A DNA stretch of 24,000 nt from Marinomonas arctica (GTDB taxonomy: Bacteria > Pseudomonadota > Gammaproteobacteria > Pseudomonadales > Marinomonadaceae). Position 1 is the stretch's first letter, and each line of letters starts with the position of its first letter. Below the pieces are notes generated by a model. The model saw only the letters and a list, made by a program, of their open reading frames with translations. It searched no databases and was not told the origin of the DNA. The stretch lies in NCBI RefSeq assembly GCF_003259225.1, contig NZ_QHJF01000015.1, positions 69,826 to 93,825 on the forward strand, given 5' to 3'. Of this stretch, positions 1,281 through 17,283 are shown in pieces. The position numbers and the translations under genes were made by a program.

Positions 1281-1289
1281 TTGTAGAAA

Positions 1290-2150: not shown

Positions 2151-2256
2151 AAATTACTCTCTTAATCGGTGTTATTTTCTATATGTGAATGAATGGCAGC
2201 AGTTATAGCAGATAAAAATGGCAATATCGTAGCGCTCGTTTTAACCATAGAGATGG

Positions 2257-3030
2257 TTATGGCAGCAGCTTCACCACAATAAAACCAGTGAATAAAGCGA
2301 TGCTTACTGAAAATAGTGAGCCCAGCATGACGTATTCGGTGAATTTTCTATCGTGGGCTTCCCGTAGATCCCCCATGCGGAAAATGGATTTCGCGGCGAG
2401 TACAAAGCCGACTGCGGTGTATTGGCCGTTTAGTATAAAGGTCAGCACTAAGACGCGTTCAAGGTAGCCCAAATACTGGCCGGCATTCGGTAAGGATTGC
2501 GCTTTCTTGTTTTGTGAGTCGCACACATCGGCTTCCAAGTCCGCCGACCATTTAGATAAAATTTCACCGATGATAATAGACGCCGGTTTGAGCATCATCA
2601 GATACGCCAGAGTGACGAGGAGAGACGCGCTGTAATCTATGTCATTGATGAGCGTTTTGATTTGTTCTATCGCGGTATCAAAGAGATAAAACCATAAAAA
2701 TAGGATGCTTAGGACATGAAGTAACTGGTCGATAATAAACCACAAAAAGCCTTGTCCAACTTTTACTTTTGCATAATCGATTAGGCTATGAATAACGGCG
2801 AATAGTAAGCTGATAAAGAGCGAGCCTAACAAGCTGGTGGCGGTTGCGAAACTCACAATCACTAAGACAATGGCGCCATGAACCAGCCCATGATAATACA
2901 AAGCGCTCGAACGGCCTTGGTGCGTATTTTTGTCTTTCACCCATGAGTTTGGCTGTAAAAAGAAATCGCCAATCACATGTCCGAGTAACAACATAAGCAA
3001 CACAGGCAAACCATCGAGCTGAAACATCAC
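2257..3030 (-). CDS. DUF3307-family polytopic membrane protein (His/Asp-rich TM helices), second gene of the satD operon
   Basis: 257 aa with about 7 hydrophobic segments. The N-terminal LLGHVIGDFFLQP block and repeated H/D positions (HGLVHG, VIHSLIDY, IIDQLLH) match my memory of DUF3307. The start overlaps the satD stop (GTGATG: GTG 3030 or ATG 3027; TGA 3029-3027), and AAGGAG lies 6-9 nt upstream. Confidence 0.75.
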   Translation of the reverse strand: MMFQLDGLPVLLMLLLGHVIGDFFLQPNSWVKDKNTHQGRSSALYYHGLVHGAIVLVIVSFATATSLLGSLFISLLFAVIHSLIDYAKVKVGQGFLWFIIDQLLHVLSILFLWFYLFDTAIEQIKTLINDIDYSASLLVTLAYLMMLKPASIIIGEILSKWSADLEADVCDSQNKKAQSLPNAGQYLGYLERVLVLTFILNGQYTAVGFVLAAKSIFRMGDLREAHDRKFTEYVMLGSLFSVSIALFTGFIVVKLLP

Positions 3031-3692
3031 GACATACTCCTTATTAACGTGGTTGCTAATGCATCCAAGGTGTCTAGTATCAAACTGGCATTTGCCCGTT
3101 GCAAGCGTGAGGCTAACGAACGTCGATGAATCCCGGTCTTGGCCGACAGCGCGTCTTGCGTTAATTCAGGGTAGAGTAGGCGAGGAAATAAGACTTCAGC
3201 CTGTTTCTCACTGAGGCCCGTCATTATAAAATCTAGGTGACGAATCAATAAATCACGGCTGGGGTTGGCTTCAACGGTGTCTGGCAAAGACAGCTTAAGG
3301 CGTTCTTCATCCATGTCTTTCAAGGCTCGGCCAGACAGCTGAAAGGCTTCGCCTTTGGCGGTTTTTCTCAGCTCAGCCTCGATCTGTTTATACGAACCAA
3401 TGCCAACAGACACCCGAGCATCGGCGCCTTTTACACACTTCATCAGTGTGAGTCTTAATAAGATAGCGCAGCGCAGCGCGTGTTTTGGATTGGGTACAAA
3501 TACCTGAAACTCATCACCGCGGAACACATCGCCCTGGGCATGGAATTCATCTTGGAAAATGGCAATGGCTTGCTCAACCTGCTGTAAACAGGCTTGATGC
3601 TCAGCATCCGACAAAGCACTGGAATTGACAATGTCTCCAGTGACAACTCCGCCTGTATTCATATCATTAGCAACATCATTAAGAGACGCCAT
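3027..3692 (-). CDS. SatD-family protein: N-terminal nucleotidyl-cyclase/GGDEF-like palm motifs plus C-terminal HTH
   Basis: The ORF track starts at GTG 3713, but a perfect AAGGAGG (3707-3701) sits 8 nt upstream of ATG 3692, so I place the start there (221 aa). Motifs seen are VVTGDIVNSS, VFRGDEFQVFV and RVSVGIGS, followed by a sigma70-region-4/LuxR-like tail (LSEKQAEVLFPRL...TQDALSAKTGIHRRSLASRLQRA). The SatD name is from memory (PF16264), and SatD classically pairs with DUF3307. Confidence 0.7.
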   Translation of the reverse strand: MASLNDVANDMNTGGVVTGDIVNSSALSDAEHQACLQQVEQAIAIFQDEFHAQGDVFRGDEFQVFVPNPKHALRCAILLRLTLMKCVKGADARVSVGIGSYKQIEAELRKTAKGEAFQLSGRALKDMDEERLKLSLPDTVEANPSRDLLIRHLDFIMTGLSEKQAEVLFPRLLYPELTQDALSAKTGIHRRSLASRLQRANASLILDTLDALATTLIRSMS

Positions 3693-3754
3693 CGAATTAT
3701 CCTCCTTCACCACAAGCCCAACTTAACGGCTTTCATATGAGCTATCAAAGCATA

Positions 3755-3787
3755 ATTCATTGACCAAAGCCAGTTTGGTCAATGAAT
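3755..3787. promoter_or_regulatory. Perfect 14-bp-arm palindrome (candidate operator) in the satD / hsdR divergent intergenic region
   Basis: ATTCATTGACCAAA-GCCAG-TTTGGTCAATGAAT. The arms (3755-3768 and 3774-3787) are perfect reverse complements. Confidence 0.55.
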
Positions 3788-3812
3788 AGTGACCAATTAT
3801 GGTTTGGTCAGT
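3788..3812. promoter_or_regulatory. Second palindrome with the same TGACCAA half-site, immediately abutting the first
   Basis: AGTGACCAA-TTATGGT-TTGGTCAGT, with 8 of 9 arm positions matching. Together with 3755-3787 it gives four TGACCAA(A/T) half-sites within 58 bp. Confidence 0.45.
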
Positions 3813-3900
3813 ATTTTAGTGTTTATTAGCGATCCGTTTGCTGGTTAGTTTGCTAATACGCTCGGCTTTGCACAAAACTTTCGTTATATTAGGAAGTTAA

Positions 3901-6363
3901 ATGGAGTTGCAGCGGATAGGTGGCATGACCTCAGGTATTAATAAAGCAAAATTATCAGAAACCGACATCATCACGAAATTTATTCTGCCCGCTGTTAAAA
4001 ACGCTGGTTGGGATGATCGTACACAGATACGACAAGAGTTCCCAGTTACAGATGGTAAAGTGGTGGTGCGAGGTCAAGTGGCAGCACGGCAGAAGGCGAG
4101 AAGAGCCGATATTGCGCTCTTTTACAAAGACGGTATGCCGCTGGCGGTGATTGAAGCCAAGTCCAATCAATATTCTGTTGGTCATGGTATTCAACAATCC
4201 TTGGATTATGCCGAACGATTGGGTGTGCCTTTTGCTTTTGCTAGTAACGGTAATGGCTTTTTATTCCATGACAAAACCAATCTAAACCAAGTTGAAAGTG
4301 AGATAACGCTGGACGACTTCCCTAGTTGCGATCAGCTTTGGGTAAAATTCTGTGAATGGAAAGGCTATCGTAACGACCAGCTTCCCTTGTTGACGCAAAG
4401 TTACCACAGCGATGGTGAGGGCAAAGCGCCTCGTTATTACCAGATGCAGGCGATTAACCGCTCCATAGAAGCTGTAGCCAAAGGCCAAAATCGCTTGTTA
4501 TTAGTCATGGCAACAGGCACAGGTAAAACCTATACCGCCTTCCAAATTATTTGGCGTTTATGGAAAGCCAAGCAGAAAAAGCGCATCTTATTTTTAGCTG
4601 ACCGCAATGCCTTAATCGATCAAACTTTTATCAACGACTTTCAGCCGTTTGGTACGGCCATGACCAAAATCAAAGGCCATAAAATTGACCCAGCTTATGA
4701 AATTCACCTTGGTTTGTATCAGGGTATGACAGGCACGGAAGAGATACAAAAAGTCTATAAAAAAGTATCTCCTGATTTTTTTGATTTGATTGTGATTGAT
4801 GAATGCCACCGAGGCAGCGCGGCAGAAGATAGTAACTGGCGTGACATTCTCGACCACTTTAGTGGCGCGACACAAATTGGTTTAACAGCCACTCCGAAAG
4901 AAACCGAAGACGTATCGAATATCGAATACTTTGGCGAGCCGATTTATACCTATTCCCTTAAACAAGGTATTGAAGATGGCTTCCTTGCACCCTATAAAGT
5001 GATGCGTGTTGACATTGATGTGGATGTACAAGGCTGGCGACCAGAAAAAGGTAAGTTAGATAAAGATGGCAATTTGGTAGATGACCGCATCTACAACCAA
5101 AAAGACTTTGACCGTAACCTAATAATCGACGAGCGCACCCAGTTGGTGGCACAAACCGTGACCAACTACTTAAAACGCACCGACCCCATGGCGAAGACCA
5201 TCGTGTTTTGTAACAACATCGATCATGCCGAACGCATGCGCCGGGCTTTGATTAACCTTAATCCTGAACAGGTGGCGAAAAGCGACAAGTATGTGATGCG
5301 CATTACGGGCGATGAAAAAGAGGGCAAAGATCAGCTGAGTTATTTCACTAACAGAAAAGAATCTTATCCAGTGATTGCCACCACCTCGGAGCTGATGACC
5401 ACAGGTGTCGATGCCAAAACCTGTAAGTTGATCGTGCTCGATCAAGGCATACAATCTATGACCAAGTTCAAACAAATTATTGGTCGTGGTACACGTATTG
5501 ATCAGGAATACAATAAGCTTTGGTTCACCATATTGGACTTTAAAAAAGCCACGGAGCTGTTTGCTGATCCGCGCTTTGATGGTGATCCAGAGCAAGTTAA
5601 AGTCAGCACGCCAGCGGCCTTTGCTGATGATGCTCTTCTTGATGAAATGATTCACGAAGGGGAAGAGATCGACCTAAGCCAAGATGACAGCATAGACCCT
5701 GACAGCATTCAAGAGCCCCAAGGTGTCTACCAAAACGGTCATCGTGAAGATTACCAACTGGGTGATGCAGACTGGAATGATGATAAACCACGCAAATTTC
5801 ACGTGAACGGTGTGCAAGTAAAAGCCCTCGCCGAGCGGGTACAATATTATGATACCGACGGCAAACTGGTGACCGAATCTTTTAAAGACTACACCCGCAA
5901 AACCTTAGCGAAGCGTTTTGCTTCCCTGGATGAGTTTGTCAAAACGTGGCAAGCGGCAGAACGCAAACAAGCCATTATTGATGAGCTGGAAGAGTGCGGA
6001 GTGATTTGGGAATTACTCGAACAGGAAGTAGGAAAAGAATTAGATCCATTCGATATGATTTGCCATATCGTATATGATCAGCCGCCGCTGACTCGAAAAG
6101 AGCGCGCTAACCAAGTGAAAAAGCGTAACTACTTCACCCGCTATGATGGTGTGGCACAAGAAGTGCTCAGTCGTTTGCTCGATAAATACGCCGATGCCGG
6201 TGTGGCGGAAATAGAAAACATACAAGTACTTAAAGTCGCGCCGTTCGACCAGTTCGGGCGTATGCAGGAAATTATTAAAAAAGGCTTCGATGGCAAAAAA
6301 GAAACCTATTATGACGCGGTGAAAGCATTAGAAGACGAGCTTTATCAAGATCAAAGCGCATAA
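3901..6363 (+). CDS. hsdR: Type I restriction enzyme R subunit (EcoEI/EcoAI-like, with EcoEI_R_C-type C-terminal domain)
   Basis: 820 aa. The N-terminal nuclease region has [15 protein letters not shown] and D...EAK (ADIALF...AVIEAKS). SF2 helicase motifs are present: MATGTGKT (I), VIDECHRGS (II, DEAH-like), GLTATP (III) and QIIGRGTR (VI). AGGAAG lies 6 nt upstream of ATG 3901. Confidence 0.95.
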
Positions 6364-6381
6364 CACCACCCCCAATTCATA

Positions 6382-6420
6382 TTTCACTCAGGCCAAAGCC
6401 AGTATTTGGCTTGAGTGAAA
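6382..6420 (+). promoter_or_regulatory. Stem-loop between hsdR and hsdM that shares an 11-nt core with the satD/hsdR operator
   Basis: TTTCACTCAGGCCAAA GCCAGTA TTTGGCTTGAGTGAAA forms a 16-bp stem with one G.U position. It contains CCAAAGCCAGT, which is identical to 3764-3774. No U-tract follows, so it is more likely an operator or processing/attenuation element than a terminator. Confidence 0.45.
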
Positions 6421-6450
6421 TCATTTCGAACAAATGCAATAGAGAACATT

Positions 6451-7914
6451 ATGTCCATCACGACTGTCATCAAATCCATCCAAGACATTATGCGCAAAGA
6501 CGCTGGCGTAGACGGCGACGCCCAACGCCTTGGTCAAATGTCATGGTTGCTGTTTCTAAAGATTTTTGACGCCCAAGAAGAAGAGCTAGCCTTTGAACAG
6601 GATGATGCTTATCAAGCACCCATTCCAGAAAATTACCTATGGCGTAACTGGGCAACCAATCCCGAAGGCATTACTGGTGACGATCTGCTCGATTTCATCA
6701 ATGATGATCTGTTCCCCGACATGAAAAACCTTGATGCCACTCGTGATCGTAATCCTCGTGGTTTTGTGGTGAAAGAAGCCTTTAGTGATGCTTACAATTA
6801 CATGAAAAACGGCACCTTGCTGCGTCAGGTGATCAATAAACTCAACGAAATCGATTTTACCGATTCTCAAGAGCGTCATCTGTTTGGTGATATTTACGAG
6901 CAAATTCTGCGCGACTTGCAAAGTGCAGGCAATGCAGGGGAATTTTACACGCCTCGTGCCGTGACTCAGTTTATTGTCAACCGTCTCGATCCCAAACTAG
7001 GGGAAAGTATCATGGATCCTGCCGCAGGCACGGGCGGCTTTCTTGCTTGCAGTTTTGATCATGTAAAAGACCGTTATGTGCAGACCACGGAAGATCATCA
7101 AACCCTACAAAAGCAGATCCACGGCGTGGAAAAAAAGCAGCTGCCGCATTTATTGTGCATCACCAATATGATGTTGCATGGTATTGAAGTGCCCGTGCAA
7201 ATTCGTCATGGCAATACCCTGAACCAGCCGTTGGCAAATTGGGACAGTAATATTGATGTGATCGCCACCAATCCTCCGTTTGGCGGCACAGAAGAAGACG
7301 GCATTGAAAAGAACTTTCCCGCCGATATGCAAACCCGAGAAACCGCCGACTTGTTCTTGCAATTGATCATAGAAGTACTGACCAACCAAGGCCGAGCAGG
7401 GGTGGTATTGCCTGATGGCACCTTGTTTGGCGAAGGTGTGAAAACCAAGATCAAAAAAATGCTCACGGAAAAGTGCAACCTGCACACCATCGTGCGTTTA
7501 CCGAACGGCGTGTTTAACCCTTACACCGGCATTAAAACCAATATCCTGTTTTTCACCAAAGGCCAGCCGACAAAAGACGTGTGGTTCTATGAGCATCCGT
7601 ATCCAGAAGGTGTGAAAAACTACAACAAAACCAAGCCAATGAAGTTTGAAGAATTTCAAACCGAAATCGATTGGTGGGGCGACGAAGCGGATGGTTTTGC
7701 CAGCCGTGTGGAAACCAACCACGCGTGGAAAGTCTCTATCGACGAGATCATCGCGCGGAACTTTAACTTAGACATTAAAAACCCTTATCAAGAAGCGGTA
7801 GAAAGCCACGATCCAGAAGAGTTGCTGGCCACTTACCAAGCGCAGCAAGACGACATTGCTGCGTTGCGCAACCAGCTAAAAGACATACTCGGCGCGGCGC
7901 TGGCAGAAAAATAA
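6451..7914 (+). CDS. hsdM: Type I R-M N6-adenine DNA methyltransferase M subunit
   Basis: AdoMet motif I is DPAAGTGGFL and catalytic motif IV is NPPFGG. The N-terminal HsdM_N block is IQDIMRKDAGVDGDAQRLGQMSWLLFLKIFD. The track start (GTG 6415) lies inside the 6382-6420 hairpin. ATG 6451 (MSITTVIKS...) is the more plausible start and gives 487 aa. Confidence 0.93.
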   Translation: MSITTVIKSIQDIMRKDAGVDGDAQRLGQMSWLLFLKIFDAQEEELAFEQDDAYQAPIPENYLWRNWATNPEGITGDDLLDFINDDLFPDMKNLDATRDRNPRGFVVKEAFSDAYNYMKNGTLLRQVINKLNEIDFTDSQERHLFGDIYEQILRDLQSAGNAGEFYTPRAVTQFIVNRLDPKLGESIMDPAAGTGGFLACSFDHVKDRYVQTTEDHQTLQKQIHGVEKKQLPHLLCITNMMLHGIEVPVQIRHGNTLNQPLANWDSNIDVIATNPPFGGTEEDGIEKNFPADMQTRETADLFLQLIIEVLTNQGRAGVVLPDGTLFGEGVKTKIKKMLTEKCNLHTIVRLPNGVFNPYTGIKTNILFFTKGQPTKDVWFYEHPYPEGVKNYNKTKPMKFEEFQTEIDWWGDEADGFASRVETNHAWKVSIDEIIARNFNLDIKNPYQEAVESHDPEELLATYQAQQDDIAALRNQLKDILGAALAEK

Positions 7915-7938
7915 ACCAAGGATGGGAAGAAAAGCAGT

Positions 7939-9015
7939 ATGACAAATAGCATGCAAAAATCGCCCGAAAAGCAAATAACTCAAACGTCTGATTACCTGTT
8001 TAAGACATTACAAAGTGTGATTAAAGACGTTAAAAAGCAAGTCTCGACGCAAGTCAATTCAGCATTAACAATGATGTATTGGCATATCGGTAAGCAAATT
8101 TATAATGAGTTATTGCAGCAGCAACGGGCAGAATACGGGCAAGCTATTGTTAAGGCATTAAGTCGTAAACTGACCAATGAATTTGGTAAAGGGTTTAACT
8201 ACAGTGCGCTCACACGTATGCAAAAGTTTTATAGTGCTTTTCCAGAAGAGCCAATTGTTGCGACACTGTCGCAACAATTGAACTGGTCACACATTGTTTT
8301 ATTGTTGCCCATTAAAGACCCACTTGCACAACGATTTTACGCTCAAATGGCGGTCAACGACCATTGGAGTGTTCGCACCTTGCGTAACCGCATCGACTCT
8401 ATGTTATTTGAGCGCACTGCCTTGTCGAAGAAACCAGACGAACTCATTCAGCAAGAATTAGCACAATTGAAAAAACAGCAAATTACGCCTAACTTGTTAT
8501 TAAAAGATCCATATCTATTGGATTTTTTAGATCTGAAAGACCACTATCTTGAGAAAGACTTAGAAGACGGCATTTTAAGAGAATTAGAATGCTTTTTGTT
8601 AGAACTAGGCAGCGGTTTTAGTTTTATTGCCCGCCAGCATCGTGTGCAAATAGGCCAAGAAGACTTTTACATTGACCTGTTATTTTACAACCGTAAGCTC
8701 AAACGACTGGTTGCCCTTGATTTAAAACTGGGAAAATTCAAAGCCGCTTACAAAGGGCAAATGGAATTGTATTTGCGTTATCTGGCGAAATACGAACAAC
8801 AGCCCGACGAGCTAGCGCCACTGGGTATTATCTTATGCGCCAGTAAAGATCAAGAACAAGTAGAACTGCTCGAACTAGACCGTACCGATATTCATGTGGG
8901 TGAATACCTCACGGCGTTACCTTCCAAAGAACAGCTGCAAAATAAGTTACATCAGGTTATGGCGAGCCGACTTGATGCCGTCAGCGACGCAACAGATCTA
9001 GCCAAAGGCGAATGA
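7939..9015 (+). CDS. DUF1016 / YhcG-like PD-(D/E)xK nuclease-fold protein inserted between hsdM and hsdS
   Basis: 358 aa. The N-terminal YhcG-type helical domain has MYWHIGKQI, YGQAIVKALSRKL, LSWSHI-like QQLNWSHIVLLL and YAQMAVNDHWSVRTLRNRIDSMLFERT. The C-terminal nuclease core has EKDLEDGIL, FSFIARQHRV and DFYIDLLFYNRKLKRLVALDLKLGKF. Its stop overlaps the hsdS start (ATGA at 9012-9015). Confidence 0.9.
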   Translation: MTNSMQKSPEKQITQTSDYLFKTLQSVIKDVKKQVSTQVNSALTMMYWHIGKQIYNELLQQQRAEYGQAIVKALSRKLTNEFGKGFNYSALTRMQKFYSAFPEEPIVATLSQQLNWSHIVLLLPIKDPLAQRFYAQMAVNDHWSVRTLRNRIDSMLFERTALSKKPDELIQQELAQLKKQQITPNLLLKDPYLLDFLDLKDHYLEKDLEDGILRELECFLLELGSGFSFIARQHRVQIGQEDFYIDLLFYNRKLKRLVALDLKLGKFKAAYKGQMELYLRYLAKYEQQPDELAPLGIILCASKDQEQVELLELDRTDIHVGEYLTALPSKEQLQNKLHQVMASRLDAVSDATDLAKGE

Positions 9016-10793
9016 CCATGACTCAGCACAACCACATTAACCACCTGATAACCGACAACATGGACGTTTGGACCAGCGCTATCAAACGCAAATCCAGCTC
9101 GGGCCGAGGCTCAAGCAAAAAAATAGAACTGTACGGCATCAAGAAACTGCGCGAGCTGATTCTGGAGCTTGCCGTGCGTGGCAAGCTGGTTCCACAAGAC
9201 CCAAATGACGAACCTGCGTCTGCTTTGCTAGAACGCATCGCCGCCGAGAAAGCCGAACTGGTCAAACAAGGCAAAATCAAAAAGCCGAAAAAGCTGCCAG
9301 AGATTACCGAAGACGAAAAACCGTTTGAACTGCCGAAAGAGTGGGAGTGGGTGAAATTAGGAGATTTATCTAGTGATATTCATTATGGCTATACAGCGTC
9401 AGCGATGCCAAATTCTGAGGGTATTAGGCTTCTCAGGATTACAGATATTCAAGATGACAAGGTTAATTGGTCAACTGTTCCTGCATGTGAAGTAACGCCA
9501 GAAAAAGCAAAGGGCTACTTGCTTGAAAATAACGATATTTTGTTGGCGCGTACTGGAGGAACTATTGGTAAATCCTATCTTGTCGAGAATATTGATGTAA
9601 AGGCAGTCTTTGCGTCTTATTTAATTCGTGTTCGTAAGATTGAGTCGATGTATGCATCGTTTATAAAAGTTTATTTAGGGAGTCAGCTGTACTGGACGCA
9701 GCTTTATGCCAATTCTGCTGGGACGGGACAGCCTAATGTTAATGCTACAGCACTGAAGTCGTTACTTTTTCCAGTGCCACCTATTGAAGAACAACACTGC
9801 ATTGTCGCCAAAGTCGATGAGTTGATGGTGCTTTGCGATCAGCTAGAGGCGCAAACCGAATCCAGTCTTGATGCTCACCAAACCTTGGTGACAGCCTTGC
9901 TAGACACCTTAGTGAATAGCCAGAATCCTGAAGAGTTGACGGAAAACTGGATGCGCATCAGCGGCCACTTCGACACCTTATTCACCACAGAACAAAGCAT
10001 CGACCAGCTCAAACAAACCATCCTACAACTGGCTGTGATGGGCAAGCTTGTCGAGCAAAACCCCAACGATGAACCTGCCTCGGTTCTACTTGAACGCATC
10101 GCCGCTGAGAAAGATGACCTAATTAAACAAGGCAAAATCAAAAAACAAAAACCACTGCCACCGATTACCGAAGAAGAAAAACCGTTTGAGTTACCAGAAG
10201 GGTGGGAGTGGTGTCGATTTGGGGTTTTGTTTAAGTCATTTTCAAATGGTCTGTACAAACCTGCGAAATTTTATACAGATGCTGGTGTGATCTCTTTGAG
10301 AATGTATAACATCCAAAATGGATGTATTGATTTTAATGCAGCGAAAAGAGTCGAGGTTGAATCTAAAGAATTAGAGCAGTTTATATTAGAAGCTGGTGAT
10401 CTTTTGATTAATCGAGTTAATAGTAAAGAGCTTGTAGGTAAAACTGGAATAATTCCTAAAATGGAAGAGCCATTAGTGTATGAAAGTATGAATATGCGAG
10501 CTAAACCCTTTACAAATTATTTATCTTCTGAGTATTTGAATTTATTTATGATGACAAGGATGGCACAGAATTCTATTTCATTGTTTGCTAAAGAGGCAAT
10601 TGGGCAGGCATCAATAAACCAAGGGCAAGTGAGTTTAATTAAAACGCCTTTGCCGCCATTCGAAGAACAACACCGAATCGTCGCCAAGGTCGATGAGTTA
10701 ATGGCTATCTGCGACCAGCTGAAAACCCGACTCAGTGAAGTGCAAACCACGCAACTGAACCTTGCGGATGCGTTAGTCGAGCAAGCTTTGTAA
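9012..10793 (+). CDS. hsdS: Type I R-M specificity subunit (two TRDs, long duplicated conserved regions; size matches the EcoAI/EcoEI family IB)
   Basis: 593 aa. There are two variable, A+T-rich target-recognition domains (about 9360-9770 and 10215-10645). Each is preceded by an (E/Q)LAV.GKLV.Q.PNDEPAS.LLERIAAEK...KPFELP..WEW block and followed by P.PP.EEQH.IVAKVDELM..CDQL. Confidence 0.95.
   Translation: MTMTQHNHINHLITDNMDVWTSAIKRKSSSGRGSSKKIELYGIKKLRELILELAVRGKLVPQDPNDEPASALLERIAAEKAELVKQGKIKKPKKLPEITEDEKPFELPKEWEWVKLGDLSSDIHYGYTASAMPNSEGIRLLRITDIQDDKVNWSTVPACEVTPEKAKGYLLENNDILLARTGGTIGKSYLVENIDVKAVFASYLIRVRKIESMYASFIKVYLGSQLYWTQLYANSAGTGQPNVNATALKSLLFPVPPIEEQHCIVAKVDELMVLCDQLEAQTESSLDAHQTLVTALLDTLVNSQNPEELTENWMRISGHFDTLFTTEQSIDQLKQTILQLAVMGKLVEQNPNDEPASVLLERIAAEKDDLIKQGKIKKQKPLPPITEEEKPFELPEGWEWCRFGVLFKSFSNGLYKPAKFYTDAGVISLRMYNIQNGCIDFNAAKRVEVESKELEQFILEAGDLLINRVNSKELVGKTGIIPKMEEPLVYESMNMRAKPFTNYLSSEYLNLFMMTRMAQNSISLFAKEAIGQASINQGQVSLIKTPLPPFEEQHRIVAKVDELMAICDQLKTRLSEVQTTQLNLADALVEQAL
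9168..9350 (+). repeat. hsdS conserved-region direct repeat, copy A1
   Basis: Clearly similar at the DNA level to 10029-10212, sharing exact runs gaacgcatcgccgc, aaacaaggcaaaatcaaaaa, gattaccgaaga, gaaaaaccgtttga and gtgggagtgg. Confidence 0.85.
9771..9854 (+). repeat. hsdS distal conserved-region direct repeat, copy B1
   Basis: Encodes PVPPIEEQHCIVAKVDELMVLCDQLEAQ. Its DNA is similar to 10647-10730 (gaagaacaacac, atcgtcgcca / attgtcgcca, gtcgatgagtt). Confidence 0.8.
10029..10212 (+). repeat. hsdS conserved-region direct repeat, copy A2
   Basis: Partner of 9168-9350, about 860 bp downstream in the same frame. Confidence 0.85.
10647..10730 (+). repeat. hsdS distal conserved-region direct repeat, copy B2
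   Basis: Encodes PLPPFEEQHRIVAKVDELMAICDQLKTR. Partner of 9771-9854. Confidence 0.8.
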
Positions 10794-10808
10794 CCAAGGA
10801 GGGTGTCT

Positions 10809-11516
10809 ATGAGCGAACTTTATAATGTGTATTGTGATGAATCTTGCCACTTAGAAAACGATGGTATTAACGTGATGACGTTGGGGGCGCTTTGGTGTCC
10901 TGTGGCTAAGCGGGCTGACATTTCCAAACGGCTTCGAGAAATCAAGGTAAAACATGGGCTGTCAGCAGATTTTGAAATCAAATGGACTAAAGTAAGTAAA
11001 GGGCGGTTGGACTTTTATCTCGATGTCATTGATTACTTTTTTGATGACGATGATTGTCATTTTAGAGGTTTGGTCGTACCTGATAAAACAGTTCTTAATC
11101 ATCATAACTTTGGTCAAACTCATGATGATTGGTACTACAAAATGTACTTTGTTATGTTGAAAAGTATCTTTGACCCAGAATCAAAATATCGTGTCTACAT
11201 TGATATTAAAGACACATTGGGTCATGAAAAAATTACCAAGTTGCACGATGTCGTTTGCAATAGTCATTATGATTTTTCGCAACATATGATAGAAAAAATG
11301 CAGCGCATTCATTCTCATGAAGCGGAACAGCTTCAAGTGGCCGATCTGTTGATAGGTGCATTAGCCTATTTACATCGAGGGCTCACAACGAATCAAGCAA
11401 AGCTTGATTTAATATCAAGAATTAAAGAGCGTAGTGGTTATCAATTAACGCGCAATACTTTGATTAGAGAAAGTAAGTTTAATCTTTTAATTTGGAATGG
11501 ACAGGGAGATTCCTAG
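10809..11516 (+). CDS. DUF3800-family protein (uncharacterised; predicted nuclease-like fold)
   Basis: AGGAGG (10797-10802) lies 6 nt upstream of ATG 10809; the track start GTG 10803 is too close to the SD. The N-terminal VYCDES block and C-terminal QLQVADLLIGALAY block match the Y.DESG ... LQ.AD.L.G signature I associate with DUF3800 (PF12686). The gene starts only 15 nt after the hsdS stop. Confidence 0.75.
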   Translation: MSELYNVYCDESCHLENDGINVMTLGALWCPVAKRADISKRLREIKVKHGLSADFEIKWTKVSKGRLDFYLDVIDYFFDDDDCHFRGLVVPDKTVLNHHNFGQTHDDWYYKMYFVMLKSIFDPESKYRVYIDIKDTLGHEKITKLHDVVCNSHYDFSQHMIEKMQRIHSHEAEQLQVADLLIGALAYLHRGLTTNQAKLDLISRIKERSGYQLTRNTLIRESKFNLLIWNGQGDS

Positions 11517-11998
11517 TGACATCGGCATGGCTGCCAGATTTGGTGTTATTTAATGATTACGACGGAGATTGGAATCGTTATTTAAATGCTATCTATGCTT
11601 ATTTCGAAGCAGATTTTGTCTTATCAAAGCCGACCTTTCGTGGCGTTAGACTAGGGTTAAAGCGTTATCCTGAATACGATGGAAAGTCTGCGACTTTTTG
11701 GCATATGACCAGTACAGGGGATGATGAAAACGAGCGAACACCAGATTTTCGTCGTTGTGAGCGTATTCGTTGGCCAAAGCCAATTATTGAAAACGATCAA
11801 CATTTATCTTTAAAAATGTGGGCTGAACCTAAAGGTAAAAATAAGCGCATTCATATTTGGTATGAGCAAAAAGGATATTTAGTTGTGCTAGATGATAGAG
11901 GCGACTATATCTTGCCTTGGACTGCATTTTACGTTGAGCGTGAACATGAAAGACGAAAATACAATAAACGTTGGGAACGAAATAGAGATAATGTATAG
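11516..11998 (+). CDS. Hypothetical 160-aa protein with no recognised family; translationally coupled partner of the DUF3800 gene
   Basis: GTG 11516 overlaps the DUF3800 stop (TAGTG) and has GGGAGA 7 nt upstream. The alternative ATG 11492 (track, 168 aa) has no SD. The ORF has coding-like composition. The protein has a W/Y/R-rich core (FWHMTS, RRCERIRWPKPIIEN, YLVVLDDRGDYILPWTAFYV) and a basic tail (REHERRKYNKRWERNRDN). Confidence 0.6.
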   Translation: MTSAWLPDLVLFNDYDGDWNRYLNAIYAYFEADFVLSKPTFRGVRLGLKRYPEYDGKSATFWHMTSTGDDENERTPDFRRCERIRWPKPIIENDQHLSLKMWAEPKGKNKRIHIWYEQKGYLVVLDDRGDYILPWTAFYVEREHERRKYNKRWERNRDNV

Positions 11999-12017
11999 GA
12001 AGTAACTAAGAAAAGCT

Positions 12018-12039
12018 GACCTCGCCCTCTTGCGAGGAC
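12018..12039 (+). terminator. Weak GC hairpin after the hsd/DUF3800 operon (possible operon end)
   Basis: CCTCGC (12020-12025) pairs with GCGAGG (12032-12037) across a 6-nt loop, about 20 nt after the stop at 11998. There is no U-tract, so the call is weak. Confidence 0.25.
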
Positions 12040-12248
12040 GGTGTCGTAACTCCTTCTACACATGGTAGATGAGATGCATGAATATTAGCTACATGAGTCA
12101 ATATTTGCAAGTAATTCGTTTTAAGCATAGGGGAGCTGTATTTCTTCATGATTAATTTTATGCTTTATTAGCGAGATTTTACGCAGAAAGTACAATCGTG
12201 AGCAATTAGAGACTATTGTAGGTTTTACGGTAGTTAAGGAGATGCGAA

Positions 12249-12410
12249 ATGCTAATTCCTAAAAAAGAAAAAGTGAAATCGACGCCTTTTTCTGTTTTTT
12301 TTCGACATGCTAAGTCGGCAGAAAAACGCCAGTTTTTTGATCGGATCGCAAAAAAAGCGATTGAAGAGCAGCAACAGATGCTTGAAAAAGCTAAGAACAT
12401 GCCACAATAA
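12249..12410 (+). CDS. Small 53-aa basic/helical protein (below the ORF-track cutoff), stand-alone transcription unit
   Basis: AAGGAG (12236-12241) lies 7 nt upstream of ATG 12249. The translation is MLIPKKEKVKSTPFSVFFRHAKSAEKRQFFDRIAKKAIEEQQQMLEKAKNMPQ*, with TAA at 12408-12410. A clean intrinsic terminator follows 22 nt later. This ORF is a better explanation of the region than the antisense Cys-rich 64-aa track ORF at 12206-12400. Confidence 0.55.
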   Translation: MLIPKKEKVKSTPFSVFFRHAKSAEKRQFFDRIAKKAIEEQQQMLEKAKNMPQ

Positions 12411-12432
12411 ATGACTTTATTGTTTATACCAG

Positions 12433-12455
12433 AGCCGCTTGATAGCGGCTTTTTA
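12433..12455 (+). terminator. Rho-independent terminator of the 53-aa ORF
   Basis: AGCCGCT (12433-12439), loop TGAT, AGCGGCT (12444-12450), followed by TTTT. Confidence 0.65.
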
Positions 12456-12643
12456 GTCTGTAAAACCTGTAGTGCTAAAACTATTTGGTTCCACTTGGGC
12501 GCAGTGCTAATGGCTTAAAGGAATGGAAAGACAGTACTGGACGAGAGTTAGTAGCGGTAGAAGAGGTTGAGATAAAAGAGGCGTAAAGCAAAATCTAACT
12601 GTTAGCTTATCCGATAATATTGTTAAACGATGATTTTATGCTT

Positions 12644-12678
12644 AAAACGCCGTGAGCTATGAAGACGTGATCACGGCG
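12644..12678 (-). terminator. Probable intrinsic terminator of the darT-darT-darG operon
   Basis: On the minus strand, CGCCGTGA (rc of 12671-12678) pairs with TCACGGCG (rc of 12648-12655) across a 15-nt loop, followed by TTTT (12644-12647). It begins 14 nt after the darG stop. Confidence 0.5.
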
Positions 12679-12691
12679 CTTTAACTGTTGT

Positions 12692-13792
12692 TTACGCGTT
12701 TTGGATAAGTGGCTGATAGGTGTTTTTTAAACGATTTAAGGCAATGTTAATCGAGCGTTCATCAAATAAGTTTGTTTTGCGTTTTGCGCTTGCTTCTCCG
12801 GCGGGCCAGTGCTGAATGCCTTGAATGATTTTTTGTAGATCAGGTTCGATGTTTTCTTTGCTAACGAGCCAATCAATCGTAGACAGCAACTCCATACCAA
12901 AAGGCGTCTCAAAACCGTCTATCAGCTCTATTGTGTCTTGTAGAGACGTCAGATAGGGAGCCATTTCTGCACTTTTTAAGTAAGTATTTAGCTGATCCTG
13001 TTTTGAGTCCTCAAACCAAATTACGTCGAGTGGTTCCGCATCATTAATGCGTTTATTACAGTACAGATAAATTCCATCCAGATGGTCTATTAAGTGTCTG
13101 AGCCTGTCTGCGTATGGGCCATATAGGTTCGCTTCGAACCTAAGGTCTAGTGGGTTGTCGGTTTTATTCGATCCGTTGTGTTTTTCAATTGAGCGCTCTA
13201 AAAACCAAGCCAGCTTCTGAACTTCCAGCAAAGTACACTCCATCCCCATCACCCAGTATTGGCGAATTAATTCTGCAATCATGGCTCTAGCAGGGGTGAG
13301 TTTTGTGTGGCCTTTTTGTTTGGCAACATTTTGATAGCGCTGTGTTGGTTCGAAAACCAAAATATCGACAGATTCTAGGTCACCGAGAATGCGCTCAATT
13401 TCAGGTTTTACGCTTTCCCAGTTAAGCTTGCCATTACCCGCACCCAAAGCAGGAATCGCAATGGAGTTTAGATGATTATCAAGAATGACTTGTTTTAGAT
13501 CTACTAAGCCTTCCGTAATCCACTCTAATTTAGACGGATTGCGCCAATGGCGCTTAGTCGGGAAGTTAACAATCCATCTTGGTCCAACGAGTTCGCCCGT
13601 TTGGGTAACGAACATGCGACCTGTTTCTACTTGTTTTGCTTTACAAGCATTTGCATAATCTTGTGTATTTTTGGGAAAGCGTTCTTTAAACATGAGCGCG
13701 ATGCCTTTTCCCATTACACCAACGGTATTCACCGTATTAACGAGGGCATCGACATCCGCTTCGAGTAAGTTGCCTTGTGTGTAATGAATCAT
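12692..13792 (-). CDS. darG: DarG-like antitoxin: N-terminal macrodomain (DNA ADP-ribosyl glycohydrolase type) plus about 200-aa C-terminal domain
   Basis: Macrodomain blocks are [50 protein letters not shown] (TARG1/DarG-type Lys) and [16 protein letters not shown] 13792 overlaps the darT stop (CAATGA). The track start GTG 13804 is less likely. Confidence 0.88.
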
Positions 13793-14442
13793 TGAAAATA
13801 CCACTGTGTCATTTTTCGAACATCGATAGCTAGAGATTTTTCCTTCACTATTTGTTCAAGCTGTTGTTTCATTTCGTCTGAATAACAAACAATGCCCAGT
13901 AAACTGGTGATGGGGCAATGTTTATAAACCAAGGCTTCTGCTTGGTAGCGTTCGATTTGGGCCGGGTCGTCTTGGTTTCGTTGAAAGTTTCGTTGTTGAA
14001 TAATAGTCCAATCTAGTTTTATTAGCTCGTCTGAATTATCGAAAAATTCTGCAAACGCTGTGTAAGCATGACGGTCTGTGAAAACAAAAGGTACCTTTGA
14101 GTCTATTAGTTTTGGTATTGAAGAGACTAAGATGACAATTTCTTCATTGGCTCTTTGTTTAACGCCACCGCGACCTGTGTGTATGTTGTACATCATAGGA
14201 GAGAAAGGCGTGAAGTAGAAGGGAATATAATCACTCAGTGTGCCGTATGGCTTGATGGGAACATTGCGCTGAGTACGTTTGTGAATTAAGTCTGTATTGC
14301 CTATTGGTTCATAGTGCTCTGCGACCTTTTGTGAGCTGGCACAATGAAGGCCATTATCCAAAATCCAAGCAAGGTTATCTCTATGGACAATTCTCCATAT
14401 GAGTGCTTTTTCTGGGTTTAGGTTTGGATAATGATTAGTCAT
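13789..14442 (-). CDS. darT: DarT (DUF4433) DNA ADP-ribosyltransferase toxin, canonical thymidine-type (DarT2-like)
   Basis: 217 aa. Block-by-block resemblance to Thermus/Mycobacterium DarT as I recall it: [57 protein letters not shown] and [12 protein letters not shown] (ARTT Glu). It sits directly upstream of, and overlapping, a macrodomain gene. Confidence 0.88.
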
Positions 14443-15013
14443 GATGTTTTACAAACATATTCTCGTTTATTTGCGTGTTGACCGTGATGTTAACAGATTT
14501 CATTATTTGTTGAACTTGCTGATCTACCGTTTGGCTTTGGGTGAAAATTTTAAAAAATTGACTCGCTGGAATCGATTCTGGTGAAAGGCATTCTGCCATA
14601 CAAACGCTTTTACAATTTTTATCGCTGTAGTTTCTTTGATCCATTAGATCCCAGTTGATGTGCTCCATTCCTTGGTTGTAATTGAGTCTGGTCGTCTCTT
14701 CGTTTGCAAGTGGATGACGTGGAATAATTTGCCAATTATTAGCGCTGGCGTGATCTCGTCTTACTGCGATTAATATGAACGTTTTGTTCTTATAGGAGTG
14801 CTGAGCTGCTAAGTCAAAAGGGTTTTTGCTGAAAAAGTGAAAGGGTACATAGTCTTGAAGTTTTTGAGCTTGGCGTTTTGTAACAATATCGCTGTCTGCG
14901 ACGTCGGTAAAATCGGTCAGTTGGCTGCGTGGTAATAAGCCATGTTTAAGAATAGATTCAAGGTTTTCTAAGCTTGTTAGATGGTACAGCAGTCTTTGGT
15001 CTTTAATTGACAT
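14435..15013 (-). CDS. Second, divergent DarT-like (DUF4433-like) ADP-ribosyltransferase paralogue; first gene of the operon
   Basis: 192 aa. Blocks seen are LLYHLTSLENLESILKHGLL, QDYVPFHFFSKNPF, INWDLM and CMAECLSPESIP (a candidate catalytic Glu in the same relative position). AAGGA lies 7 nt upstream of ATG 15013. Its last codons overlap the darT start by 8 nt (ATGACTAA). Confidence 0.7.
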   Translation of the reverse strand: MSIKDQRLLYHLTSLENLESILKHGLLPRSQLTDFTDVADSDIVTKRQAQKLQDYVPFHFFSKNPFDLAAQHSYKNKTFILIAVRRDHASANNWQIIPRHPLANEETTRLNYNQGMEHINWDLMDQRNYSDKNCKSVCMAECLSPESIPASQFFKIFTQSQTVDQQVQQIMKSVNITVNTQINENMFVKHHD

Positions 15014-15046
15014 CGTGAAATCCTTTTTACTGAAGTTGTTTTGGTT

Positions 15047-15061
15047 GTACAGTGCGTGTAC
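15047..15061. promoter_or_regulatory. Small palindrome between a TACAAT -10-like box and the SD of the darT operon (candidate operator)
   Basis: GTACA-GTGCG-TGTAC. GTTGTAC plus AGTGC recurs at 15115-15138. On the minus strand a TACAAT box (rc of 15077-15082) lies just upstream of the palindrome. Confidence 0.25.
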
Positions 15062-15196
15062 TTATATATCTAAGACATTGTAATGAATAAAATGAGTCAG
15101 AACCCTCAAAAATAGTTGTACTTGTTAGTTAGTGCACCCTTTGCGTTTAAGGTGGGTAATCTCTTTTGTTGCTGGGGCTTTTTTAGACTCTTTTGG

Positions 15197-15802
15197 CTAG
15201 AGCTCTTCTGTCTTAAATTCGCTGTAGCCTTCGTAGTAGTAACTCACGTCAATGCCTTTCATAAAGACCGAGCGGTCGTGAATTTTATCGGTTAAGGCTT
15301 GTTTGAGTAGTACTTTAATTTCAACGTCTTTGACGACGCTGCGCTGCATCGAAGAAAGGTATTCGTCTTTATCGACGGCGTTCCAGTCTATTACCTGTTT
15401 GATTTCTTTTTTGAATATAAGGTCAAGCCAGATGCGAGTGGCGCGACCATTGCCTTCGCGAAATGGGTGGGCGATGTTCATCTCTACATATTTTTCGACG
15501 ATCTCGTCGAAATTGCTCTGGGGCATGGCATCGATGTGTTTCAGCGATGGCTCTAAATACATGAGGGGAGCAAAGCGGAAGCCTCCTTTGGCAATGTTGA
15601 CCTCACGAATCTTGCCTGCAAAGTGGTAGATATCGTCAAACAAATAGGCGTGAATAAAGGCGAGACCTCTAAAGGTGCCAATCTCAACTTTTTCGATGTC
15701 ACTGGAGTCAAACAGCTGTTTCGCTTTTTGCTTACTGATTTTTTCCTCTGCTTTCGCGAGTTCTATTTGGTCAGTGATATTGAGTTTGTTTTCCAATAGC
15801 AT
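15197..15802 (-). CDS. fic: Fic-domain AMP-transferase, class III (C-terminal autoinhibitory helix), NmFic-like
   Basis: 201 aa. The Fic active-site motif is HPFREGNGRATR (HxFx(D/E)GNGRxxR). The C-terminal SYYYEG matches the (S/T)xxxE(G/N) inhibitory motif. No small antitoxin ORF lies upstream. Confidence 0.9.
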   Translation of the reverse strand: MLLENKLNITDQIELAKAEEKISKQKAKQLFDSSDIEKVEIGTFRGLAFIHAYLFDDIYHFAGKIREVNIAKGGFRFAPLMYLEPSLKHIDAMPQSNFDEIVEKYVEMNIAHPFREGNGRATRIWLDLIFKKEIKQVIDWNAVDKDEYLSSMQRSVVKDVEIKVLLKQALTDKIHDRSVFMKGIDVSYYYEGYSEFKTEEL

Positions 15803-16067
15803 GTTACATGCCCTCTGTTTTTACTATGTCTGCTTTTGAACAACGGCTTTTAGTGTTTTACATCGAATAGCTGAGAATGATCCTTTATTCTACCGTAAAG
15901 TGCTCTTAGGCTTCATTGCTATTTTGGGAAAAATTACTGTTTGGGTCCGGTAGCTTGTTGTTGGCTTTAGATGTGTTGAAATACGTTCTGGGTTACTGAT
16001 GTGCCCAATAAAAAAGAGAAGCCATTCGACTTTTCTTTTTTATTTCTGAAGTGTGATTTACGCAAGG

Positions 16068-17081
16068 TTAGAATTTAATCAGTACTTTACCTATGTGTTT
16101 GGCTTGTGCGAAGTATTGGTAGGCTTGGGGCGCTTGGTCAAAGTCAAAAGTTTTAGCGATCAAGGCTTTGCGGTCGTTGGTGGCTAGGGCGTTGATGTAA
16201 TCAACAAACATGGCGCGACTGCCGTTGGCGATGCCTTTGATGACAATGTTTTTCAGGATAAACATGGTGTAGTTGGGTATAGGGGAGTTGCTCCCAGGTG
16301 CAACGCCGATGACCACGATTTGTCCATTGGCCGCTGCGGCATTAATGGAGTGGCCAAGTGTGTCCTGTCCGCCTGTTTCTAGAATGATGTCTGCCCCGTG
16401 ATTGTTGGTTTGCTTCATCAGTTCCGCGGCCCAGTCTGGGTGCGTTTTGTAGTCAATGGTGATGTCTGCGCCAAGTTTACGTGCCACGGCTAATTTTTCA
16501 TCGCTGGAAGAAGTGATGGCCACGCGTGCGCCATGCATTTTCGCGACGTTGAGTGCGGCTAAAGACACACCGCCAGTCCCTAAGCAAAGTACTGTGTCGC
16601 CTGCTTTTACTTTGGTTTTGCCTGTGAGGGCGTGCCACGCGGTGAGTCCGGCAGACGCCATGACGGCAGCGTCTTCATCGCTAATGTTATCCGGTAGGCG
16701 GATTAAGGCGGCCGCTGGCAATAAAACCTGTTCTGCAAGCCAACCATCGTGGGTGATGCCGATATCGTGATTAAAAATGTTGGTACTAAATGGGCCATCT
16801 AGCCAGTTGGCAAAATGCCCGCAAACCACACGATCGCCCACGCTGACTTCTGTTACGCCTTCGCCGATGGCAATCACATCACCAACGCCTTCTGTGCCAG
16901 GCACGCGCTTAGGATCTTGAAGTGGGCCATAAGTCCCTGTTAGTACTTGGATATCTCGGCTTATAAGGCTGACAAGACGTGGCGCAATGATGGCTTCACC
17001 AGGGCCTGCGACTGGCTCTGGGCGTGTGGTGGCGCTTAGGGTGTTGTTGCTGTGTTGTTTGCCAATTTGAAATGCTTTCAT
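16068..17081 (-). CDS. Zinc-type alcohol dehydrogenase / quinone oxidoreductase family protein (MDR superfamily)
   Basis: 337 aa. It has a GroES-like N-terminal domain (PGTEGVGDVIAIGEGVTEVSVGDRVV) and a Rossmann block (GDTVLCLGTGGVSLAALNVAKMHGARV). Confidence 0.85.
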   Translation of the reverse strand: MKAFQIGKQHSNNTLSATTRPEPVAGPGEAIIAPRLVSLISRDIQVLTGTYGPLQDPKRVPGTEGVGDVIAIGEGVTEVSVGDRVVCGHFANWLDGPFSTNIFNHDIGITHDGWLAEQVLLPAAALIRLPDNISDEDAAVMASAGLTAWHALTGKTKVKAGDTVLCLGTGGVSLAALNVAKMHGARVAITSSSDEKLAVARKLGADITIDYKTHPDWAAELMKQTNNHGADIILETGGQDTLGHSINAAAANGQIVVIGVAPGSNSPIPNYTMFILKNIVIKGIANGSRAMFVDYINALATNDRKALIAKTFDFDQAPQAYQYFAQAKHIGKVLIKF

Positions 17082-17283
17082 GAATGGGTAACCCTTATTG
17101 GTATATCGTCTTAGAATGGGCGCAAGTGTAACCTAGCGGAGTTTGGCGACTGTGTGGTAAATGAGTAAATACGCGGTAATTTATAAATAAAATTAATGTG
17201 AATGGCGGTATTAGTTTAGCGGTTGCTAAATAATAACGACGTTGTAAAGGGTATGAATAGTGTGTTTAACCAATCTCTAAAAC

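Follow-up and report, generated by a model that had tools for sequence, protein, structure and literature searches.

Does a gene pair that stands back-to-back with a restriction-modification operon belong to the defences of its host, or does it have a history of its own? The question is raised by a window of 24,000 nucleotides from Marinomonas arctica (assembly GCF_003259225.1, contig NZ_QHJF01000015.1, positions 69,826 to 93,825 of the forward strand), in which satD and the gene of a DUF3307 membrane protein lie beside a type I restriction-modification (R-M) system. A first-pass annotation, made from the sequence of this window, had noticed that three blocks of SatD (VVTGDIVNSS, VFRGDEFQVFV and RVSVGIGS) resemble the motifs of nucleotide cyclases and GGDEF proteins, and had proposed on the strength of the neighbouring R-M genes that the pair might act in defence. 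We arrive at a different, composite reading, to which we give a probability of roughly 0.5: the pair would consist of an autoregulated, nucleotide-binding transcription factor, SatD, and a membrane metalloprotein, DUF3307.

The two genes are closely coupled. The satD open reading frame (3027 to 3713, minus strand) has its likely start at ATG 3692, which yields the 221-residue product found in databases and is preceded at a distance of 8 nt by the sequence AAGGAGG (3707-3701), kept in five Marinomonas genomes. This product is identical to a protein encoded on CP061081.1, a Marinomonas chromosome of 4.54 Mb, and NCBI gives the name 'MULTISPECIES: SatD family protein [Marinomonas]' to an orthologue with 95% identity. 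The junction with the DUF3307 gene reads GTGATG, so that a start at GTG 3030 overlaps the satD stop codon TGA (3029-3027) by 4 nt and a start at ATG 3027 overlaps it by 1 nt; both this overlap and the internal Shine-Dalgarno sequence described in the first-pass annotation are present, and the coupling that it deduced from them extends well beyond this genome. The two genes are adjacent in 77 of 80 loci, with DUF3307 downstream of satD, and they overlap in 51 of those 77, by 4 bp in 42. Across loci, SatD and DUF3307 are the only conserved neighbours, and Rfam and tRNA scans of the region gave no hits. One break in this otherwise near-universal coupling is found in M. spartinae USM8 (locus L003, 8669-10160), where an inserted peptidase S41 gene (8700-9956), encoded by the opposite strand, splits satD from DUF3307 while both frames stay open.

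Both families are already catalogued and functionally uncharacterised. The Pfam name SatD comes from the satD/satE genes of the Streptococcus mutans sat operon (Kremer et al. 2001, J Bacteriol 183:2543, as cited in PMC4408037). In our literature search, 'SatD family' appeared only in an annotation survey, SatD combined with cyclase returned nothing on SatD, and DUF3307 was named only in a phage genome paper, that of a jumbo Ralstonia phage in which a DUF3307 protein is ORF187.

A trimmed cyclase-type domain joined to a DNA-binding domain

The N-terminal domain of SatD is a true palm domain of the class III type, though a minimal one, and its resemblance to cyclases is homology rather than chance: a profile search of the PDB, a profile-profile comparison and a structure search, three independent approaches, equate the same residues. 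A profile of 24 SatD sequences matched the class III adenylyl cyclase Ma1120 at E=0.004, and a profile of 100 homologues, one each from different clusters at 50% identity, matched it at E=5e-5, together with a second cyclase, 3mr7 (E=1.7e-3); the GGDEF domain of DosC was a further, weak match (E=0.018). Comparison by hhalign of the SatD profile with six annotated adenylate/guanylate cyclase domains, taken from plasmids, gave a probability of 93% (E=3.2e-7) over 124 columns. Furthermore, the AlphaFold2 model of SatD (predicted local distance difference test, pLDDT, 92; predicted template modelling score, pTM, 0.89) has the topology beta-alpha-beta-beta-alpha-beta, and the top 50 Foldseek matches of this model in the PDB were all cyclase-homology domains (best E=3.6e-5), including Ma1120, Rv1900c, soluble guanylate cyclase, CyaB, Cya2 and the Pycsar cyclic UMP (cUMP) synthase 7r65. 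The alignment with Ma1120 pairs D20 and D60 with the metal-binding aspartates D15 and D59, and R93 with R97, the arginine of the 'R-I-G-I-H' strand. Given this agreement, the idea that SatD is a plain helix-turn-helix (HTH) regulator whose unrelated N-domain looks like a cyclase by accident is effectively refuted, even if single-sequence searches speak for it: those of the PDB and Pfam returned no cyclase family and nothing useful, so that profiles were needed, and neither Guanylate_cyc nor GGDEF is among the 25 Pfam families listed for the 100 homologues scanned singly.

The three motif blocks coincide with the most conserved positions of the family. Among the 100 homologues, D20 (codon 3635-3633), D60 (codon 3515-3513) and G121 are the sole invariant columns, and T18, S24, R58, G59, Q63, D91, R93, G99 and S120 are kept in at least 96% (R58 in 99, Q63 in 96, D91 in 98 and R93 in 99). 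Conservation is thus concentrated at the predicted active site, and the metal and phosphate site of SatD is under strong selection. The palm fold and the two metal-binding aspartates that the first-pass annotation had proposed to look for are thus both found, and of the nucleotide-contacting residues a part is retained: the Ser/Thr phosphate loop and the arginine of beta4 are kept, and the lysine that specifies the substrate is missing. In Ma1120 this lysine is K55, four residues before the second aspartate, recognised as such because the deposited 'KDA to EGY' mutant chain differs there; the corresponding SatD position 56 is I, F, L, V or M in 93 of the 100 homologues.

Set against class III cyclases such as Ma1120 and Rv1900c (PF00211), SatD shares the palm fold and the order of its secondary-structure elements, with 'xTGDIxxS(T/S)' on beta1 corresponding to 'FTDIEEST', 'RGDxFQ' on beta2-3 to 'QGDGFM' and 'DxRxSIGIG' on beta4 to 'RVRIGIH'. 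However, its domain measures only about 125 residues against some 165-180, and it carries the family-specific residues R58, Q63 and D91 beside the aspartate pair. No counterpart of the dimerisation arm (beta5-beta6) was found: in the SatD model, beta4 (92-101) is followed by the helix at 115-125 with no hairpin in between, and hhalign found after beta4 no confident equivalent of the helix that bears the transition-state Asn and Arg. In a tentative alignment of our own, R122 (74% conserved) is possibly the transition-state arginine, and the variable position 118 possibly that of the asparagine. GGDEF domains (PF00990) belong to the same palm superfamily, and the 'FRGDEFQVFV' of the window recalls their 'RxGGDEFxV', but the match is weaker than that to class III cyclases, the glutamate of 'GDEF' is serine in 77% of SatD homologues and no I-site is evident.

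To this domain is fused a C-terminal HTH of the type that the first-pass annotation had recognised there, namely sigma-70 region 4/LuxR: among the 100 homologues, 47 match Sigma70_r4, 46 Sigma70_r4_2 and 29 GerE/LuxR, and in the PDB the C-terminus also matches the N-terminal HTH of the B. subtilis deoxyribonucleoside regulator. LuxR/GerE and sigma-70 region 4 regulators likewise have a four-helix HTH, and they sit as dimers on palindromes of about 20 bp, as SatD would. A cyclase domain and an HTH are joined in one polypeptide in the mycobacterial cyclase-ATPase-LuxR fusions as well, for instance in Rv0386. Compared with such fusions SatD is minimal, having 221 residues without ATPase or TPR modules, and its operator arrays have a fixed spacing of 29 bp. 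In its working, satD-DUF3307 comes closest to a one-component regulator whose input domain has a cyclase fold, and the nearest structures are class III cyclases.

Palindrome arrays and the membrane partner

Upstream of satD lie two copies of the palindrome TGACCAA-N7-TTGGTCA, as the first-pass annotation had seen from their half-sites. They are the only exact copies in the window, where 0.01 would be expected. The proximal one extends to perfect arms of 14 nt, and both are base-for-base identical in five Marinomonas genomes, in which the surrounding sequence is only 74-96% identical. The heptamer TGACCAA on its own is over-represented window-wide, with 19 occurrences against 3.6 expected from shuffles (for example at 4178, 4661, 5159, 5459 and 6530); four of the 19 are the operator half-sites, and the others are spread through coding regions to either side of the island boundary described below. 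What is specific to the site upstream of satD is therefore the full palindromes and not the heptamer. We also considered the proximal palindrome as a terminator of an upstream gene, and rejected this because it has only 4 G-C pairs and is conserved even though the upstream genes differ between genomes.

Similar arrangements recur far beyond Marinomonas. In a survey of 80 loci from Bacteroidota, Gammaproteobacteria, Chloroflexia and other lineages, the best perfect inverted-repeat arm in the 150 bp upstream of satD averaged 9.3 nt, against 5.9 nt in shuffled sequence. The half-sites themselves are lineage-specific, being TTCGTATA-N3-TATACGAA in Chitinophagaceae and TGCAACCAA-N5-TTGGTTGCA in Bacteroidales, and of the types GCAACCAA in Colwelliaceae and ATACAAGT in Chloroflexia, and their density upstream of satD is 34-70 times that found elsewhere in these loci. 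The palindromes form arrays of 2-4. Of 50 distances measured between their centres, 35 are of 28-30 bp, 29 of these being of exactly 29 bp, and a second mode lies at 57-58 bp; the spacing is kept even where the half-sites of two lineages are unrelated. The copy on a Vibrio lentus plasmid is arranged likewise, and in the E. coli plasmid pEC34A we read a spacing of about 30 bp from the sequence. As a side observation, 29 bp is close to 2.75 helical turns, which would place consecutive sites on different faces of the DNA and hints at a wrapped or helical form of higher-order binding.

A geometry that stays constant as the sequence changes is the pattern expected of a co-evolving cognate DNA-binding protein, and SatD is the only DNA-binding protein conserved across these loci. 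There is also anecdotal evidence that its recognition helix tracks the class of half-site, with [ST]RQ accompanying GCAACC-type sites in two phyla and SKST accompanying TTCGTATA. The palindromes thus appear, from comparative evidence, to behave as operators, and the arrays argue for autoregulation of satD, with SatD dimers presumably binding their own upstream region cooperatively.

The partner gene encodes a protein that matches DUF3307 (PF11750) with 82.3 bits over residues of about 9-120 (gathering score 23); all 30 homologues scanned match this family too. Its model (pLDDT 90, pTM 0.70) is built of helices throughout, about eight of them hydrophobic. The His/Asp pairs that had looked conserved in the single sequence are indeed invariant or nearly so: among the 30 homologues H17, D21, F22, Q25, P26, W29, H46, H80, D84, K87, D100, Q101 and H104 do not vary, H50 is kept in at least 90%, and each of the first four helices bears an [HD]xxx[HD] motif. 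A second invariant block (P148, G183, G187, E190, R191, K213, S214, R217, T230, E231 and Y232) falls in the C-terminal half. Lys and Arg number 4.0 in loop 24-40 and 2.7 in loop 87-95, against approximately none in the alternate loops, and by the positive-inside rule this charge distribution places both the His/Asp cluster and the segment 213-231 on the cytoplasmic side. The placing of five histidines and three aspartates on four helices, at a distance of one helical turn, suggests a metal centre, either of an enzyme or of an ion site, and from sequence and model it is probable that such a centre lies near the cytoplasmic face of the membrane. Searches by homology added little here: the DUF3307 profile matched no PDB sequence, the model found only noise among PDB structures (best E 1.1; G-protein-coupled receptors and channels), the C-terminal half matched no Pfam family and no second Pfam family occurred in the 30 homologues.

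The same motifs could be taken to indicate metal homeostasis, in which the aspartate pair of SatD senses a divalent cation and DUF3307 transports the metal, comparable to the HxxxD sites of cation-diffusion facilitators. The invariance of [HD]xxx[HD] on four helices across phyla would suit such a role, and operons that combine an autoregulated regulator with a transporter are common. However, DUF3307 shows no sequence or fold similarity to known transporters, its His/Asp cluster is predicted to lie near one face of the membrane and not in its middle, and the conserved phosphate-loop Ser/Thr and arginine residues of SatD point to a nucleotide rather than a bare cation, so that we regard this explanation as improbable.

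An inserted island, a backbone pair and mobile copies

What, then, of the R-M genes next door? Relative to M. rhodophyticola, positions 1-3818 of the window are 96% identical and positions 17280-24000 are 90% identical, whereas the 13.5 kb in between (3819-17279) are replaced by 368 bp. The similarity of all four Marinomonas relatives to the window stops at 3816-3818, just past the distal palindrome. The pair satD-DUF3307 therefore belongs to the Marinomonas chromosomal backbone and the R-M system to an island, and the back-to-back arrangement of satD and hsdR exists because a defence island was inserted beside the satD operators (Table 1). Neither an integrase nor a tRNA target was found for this island, and no flanking direct repeat exceeded 10 nt.

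Table 1. Positions, within the 24,000-nucleotide window, of the satD-DUF3307 module and of the genes in the neighbouring island.
Feature	Position	Strand	Remarks
satD coding sequence	3027..3692	minus	ATG 3692, 221 aa; open frame reaches GTG 3713
SatD minimal class III cyclase-homology (palm) domain	3288..3659	minus	residues ~12-135; ~125 aa
SatD HTH, sigma-70 region 4/LuxR-GerE type	3033..3263	minus	residues ~144-220
Shine-Dalgarno AAGGAG for the DUF3307 gene	3042-3037	minus	within the satD 3' end
DUF3307 (SatE-like) membrane protein gene	2257..3030 (GTG) or 3027 (ATG)	minus	256-257 aa, overlaps satD stop
DUF3307 N-domain, four predicted transmembrane helices	2671..3003	minus	H17/D21, H46/H50, H80/D84, D100/H104; PF11750 match
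DUF3307 C-terminal half, further predicted transmembrane helices and conserved, predicted cytoplasmic charged segment	2266..2634	minus	E190, R191, K213, S214, R217, T230, E231, Y232
Proximal operator-like palindrome	3755..3787		ATTCATTGACCAAA-N5-TTTGGTCAATGAAT; core TGACCAA-N7-TTGGTCA at 3761-3781
Distal operator-like palindrome	3790..3810		TGACCAA-N7-TTGGTCA; centre 29 bp from proximal centre
Strain-specific 13.5-kb defence island	3819..17279		outside the satD module; from comparison with M. rhodophyticola
hsdR (island)	3901-6363		type I R-M
hsdM (island)	6415-7914		type I R-M
DUF1016/YhcG PD-(D/E)XK nuclease gene (island)	7939-9015		PDC-S02; between hsdM and hsdS
hsdS (island)	9012-10793		type I R-M
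PDC-M04A/B pair (island)	10803-11998
DarG (island)	12692-13804
Two tandem DarT paralogues (island)	13789-14442 and 14435-15013
Fic/PDC-S04 (island)	15197-15802
Zn-dependent dehydrogenase (island)	16068-17081

Two further observations concern the insertion site. The 368-bp filler of M. rhodophyticola (locus L001, 7514-7881) seems, from our own reading of its translation, to hold a fragment of an IS5-like transposase; if the fragment is real, the site between the satD operators and the terminator of an OmpA-family gene may be a recombination hot spot. Moreover, the insertion has brought the start of hsdR to about 90 bp from the satD operators, and SatD binding could incidentally affect R-M expression in this strain.

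The inference of defence from R-M adjacency, on which the first-pass annotation had relied, does not survive this comparison, and its further suggestion of measuring the pair against defence islands likewise led away from defence. We surveyed 86 proteins flanking the pair in 22 divergent lineages, which is a small sample. The commonest Pfam families among them are housekeeping ones, such as cytochrome bd, purine and pyrimidine biosynthesis, PGI and DNA polymerase I, and no defence family recurred, each PADLOC family matching one protein only. Neither SatD nor DUF3307 had a match at E<=0.1 in PADLOC-DB v2.0.0, a release of 2023 that covers the systems known by then, and the island genes matched strongly in the same scan. 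Within Marinomonas and within Chitinophagaceae the pair occupies a stable locus. The fallback that the first-pass annotation had kept in reserve, a regulator with a membrane protein that has nothing to do with defence, fits the evidence better. More generally, adjacency to R-M genes can be an artefact of island insertion, which matters for the prediction of defence systems through guilt by association.

Among the flanking genes, an inositol-monophosphatase/CysQ-family gene stands directly 3' of the pair in four lineages, two of Gammaproteobacteria and two of Chloroflexia (L018, 9604-10338; L025; L036; L080), and four of the 86 genes encode GGDEF-domain proteins. Such neighbours may be a weak hint at nucleotides, or chance.

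The pair is widespread and, in places, mobile. The SatD profile matches 3,952 clusters at 50% identity, and pairs were found in Bacteroidota, Gammaproteobacteria and Chloroflexia as well as on plasmids. A tblastn search of plasmids located it on pEC34A (NC_019077.1; L081, 1792-3481), a ColE1-like E. coli plasmid of 3,770 bp, and on near-identical Klebsiella plasmids. The annotated genes of these plasmids are rop, mobA, a 51-residue open reading frame, the SatD homologue and the DUF3307 protein only; the two assignments are firm by hhalign (99.8%, E=1e-28, for SatD and 99.9% for DUF3307), and the pEC34A literature states no function. Being the sole cargo of plasmids this small, the pair is an autonomous module that needs no other partners to work as a unit, and at times it is selected as plasmid cargo. 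This lends some weight to a conflict-system or addiction reading, although the chromosomal context speaks against it. On the Pseudomonas fragi plasmid pPFL (10.3 kb; L083, 5491-7315) it sits between integrase and toxin-antitoxin (TA) genes, and larger Vibrio and Salinivibrio plasmids also carry it. The plasmid pair was absent at the DNA level from all 5,426 complete E. coli genomes searched. The plasmid variants of DUF3307 are longer (332-356 residues), with an extra insert of about 75 residues in a cytoplasmic loop.

In phages, the N-domain of DUF3307 occurs by itself. The family phrog_2470, annotated 'membrane protein', is a stand-alone DUF3307 N-domain (E=2.8e-17), and the phage proteins (BFVD A0A7R7IAL7, A0A8S5PQC1 and A0A1S6UAT4) have about 90-130 residues and are found without the C-terminal half and without SatD. 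A search of BFVD with the DUF3307 model likewise returned short phage DUF3307 proteins (94-130 residues) only, and a tblastn search of 50,697 phage genomes with the SatD and DUF3307 proteins matched none of them.

Carriage on such plasmids raises the question of an addiction or stabilisation module of TA type, with SatD as DNA-binding antitoxin and autorepressor and DUF3307 as membrane toxin. The layout is alike, with an upstream HTH gene, a 4-bp overlap and palindromic operators; the pair is the only cargo of ColE1-type plasmids of 3.77 kb, it adjoins TA genes on pPFL and its neighbourhoods are variable. Yet a protein of 256 residues and about eight helices, with some 30 residues invariant across phyla, is unlike known membrane toxins, and an antitoxin role would leave the invariant two-aspartate nucleotide or metal site of SatD unexplained. 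The pair is, furthermore, apparently single-copy and vertically inherited within genera and families, and in M. spartinae USM8 the separated genes have both kept open frames. We consider a TA-like function doubtful in consequence, at about the same low level as metal homeostasis.

Sensor, synthase or effector

A more serious alternative is a signalling effector module with the logic of Pycsar or Panoptes, in which the product of a SatD cyclase or synthase, or the loss of this product, gates DUF3307 and leads to membrane damage or abortive infection, the HTH merely holding expression low. The fold, the two retained aspartates, the appearance of a Pycsar cUMP synthase among the structural matches and the strict, translationally coupled pairing with a membrane protein are all in keeping with it, as are the carriage of the pair as sole plasmid cargo, the integrases and TA genes around it on pPFL and the stand-alone N-domains in phages. 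The pyrimidine cyclases of Pycsar also deviate from the canonical purine-specifying residues. Guard systems that combine a cyclase with a transmembrane effector are documented, for example Panoptes. On the other hand, the specificity lysine is absent, no counterpart of the dimerisation arm was found and, in our tentative alignment, the position of the transition-state asparagine varies. No cNMP_binding, CARF, SAVED or similar sensor family was found in the 30 DUF3307 homologues at E<=1, and the many invariant polar residues of DUF3307 are typical of an enzyme or transporter and not of a pore-forming toxin. The absence of PADLOC matches, the housekeeping flanks, the inheritance at a stable locus and the restriction of the defence context to an inserted island point the same way. 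We thus hold this explanation to be unlikely, if less so than an addiction module or metal homeostasis.

Comparison with the named systems separates them further, and the satD pair is not Pycsar, not CBASS and not Panoptes. Pycsar likewise consists of two genes, for a class III-type cyclase fold (PycC, 7r65) and a membrane protein, but DUF3307 lacks the cNMP-binding domain of its transmembrane or TIR effectors, SatD has an HTH and operator arrays that PycC does not, and the satD pair has neither a PADLOC match nor an association with defence islands beyond this strain. CBASS requires a CD-NTase, and the pair is not a member. Panoptes also couples a minimal palm-domain synthase (mCpol) to a transmembrane effector; however, SatD has no mCpol match in Pfam, no Cas10 or mCpol structure appears in its top 50, and the membrane partner is unrelated. 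The S. mutans satD/satE genes are of the same family by Pfam, with the window SatD below the threshold, and that operon involves a partner membrane gene too.

We return to the autoregulated nucleotide-binding regulator with a membrane metalloprotein as its output. Under this reading, satD-DUF3307 would be a self-contained, autoregulated two-gene operon of the Marinomonas backbone, in which the HTH of SatD, as dimers, would bind the two 21-bp palindromes centred 29 bp apart, as the comparative evidence suggests. The N-domain would serve for dimerisation and signal input: the palm would bind a Mg- or Mn-nucleotide and possibly turn it over, and its occupancy or turnover would set binding at the operators. 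DUF3307, the regulated output, would be a polytopic inner-membrane protein with its His5/Asp3 cluster just inside the cytoplasmic face, and would probably feed back on SatD, perhaps via the conserved cytoplasmic C-terminal segment.

Several points weigh against this reading. Both catalytic aspartates and the dense set of conserved polar residues around them would fit an active enzyme equally as well as a sensor. The position of the pair as sole cargo of mobilisable 3.8-kb plasmids, and its integrase and TA neighbours on pPFL, are more typical of defence or addiction modules. The window SatD matches the Pfam family SatD (PF16264) with 25.9 bits (E=8.8e-6, profile positions 4-203 of 211), under the gathering score of 29; among the 100 homologues, 64 match that family at E<=1. 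SatD as the protein that binds the palindromes is something we infer, and the metal site of DUF3307 is drawn from a sequence pattern and a predicted topology only. Finally, a sigma-70 promoter scan gave no more sites than shuffled sequence, and since the satD promoter was thus not confidently placed, repression and activation of the operon are indistinguishable.

There is also a variant in which SatD is an active, minimal class III-type nucleotide synthase as well as a DNA binder, its product or occupancy controlling both the operators and DUF3307. We see this as a minority possibility, comparable to the signalling effector module. If it is true, the pair would make up a second-messenger module of a new kind, widespread and able to move horizontally, that stands apart from CBASS, Pycsar, type III CRISPR and Panoptes. 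Such a module could serve in conflicts with phages or plasmids or in the control of envelope stress, and the stand-alone membrane domains of phages might be mimics or antagonists.

For the family as a whole, our analysis offers a concrete and testable anatomy: a trimmed class III cyclase domain that keeps its metal site and is fused to an HTH, operator arrays at a spacing of 29 bp and a membrane partner with a His/Asp cluster predicted to face the cytoplasm. Should the palm domain be active, SatD and DUF3307 would form a new nucleotide-signalling module; should it be a sensor, they would represent a case in which a one-component regulator has taken over the cyclase fold as its ligand domain.

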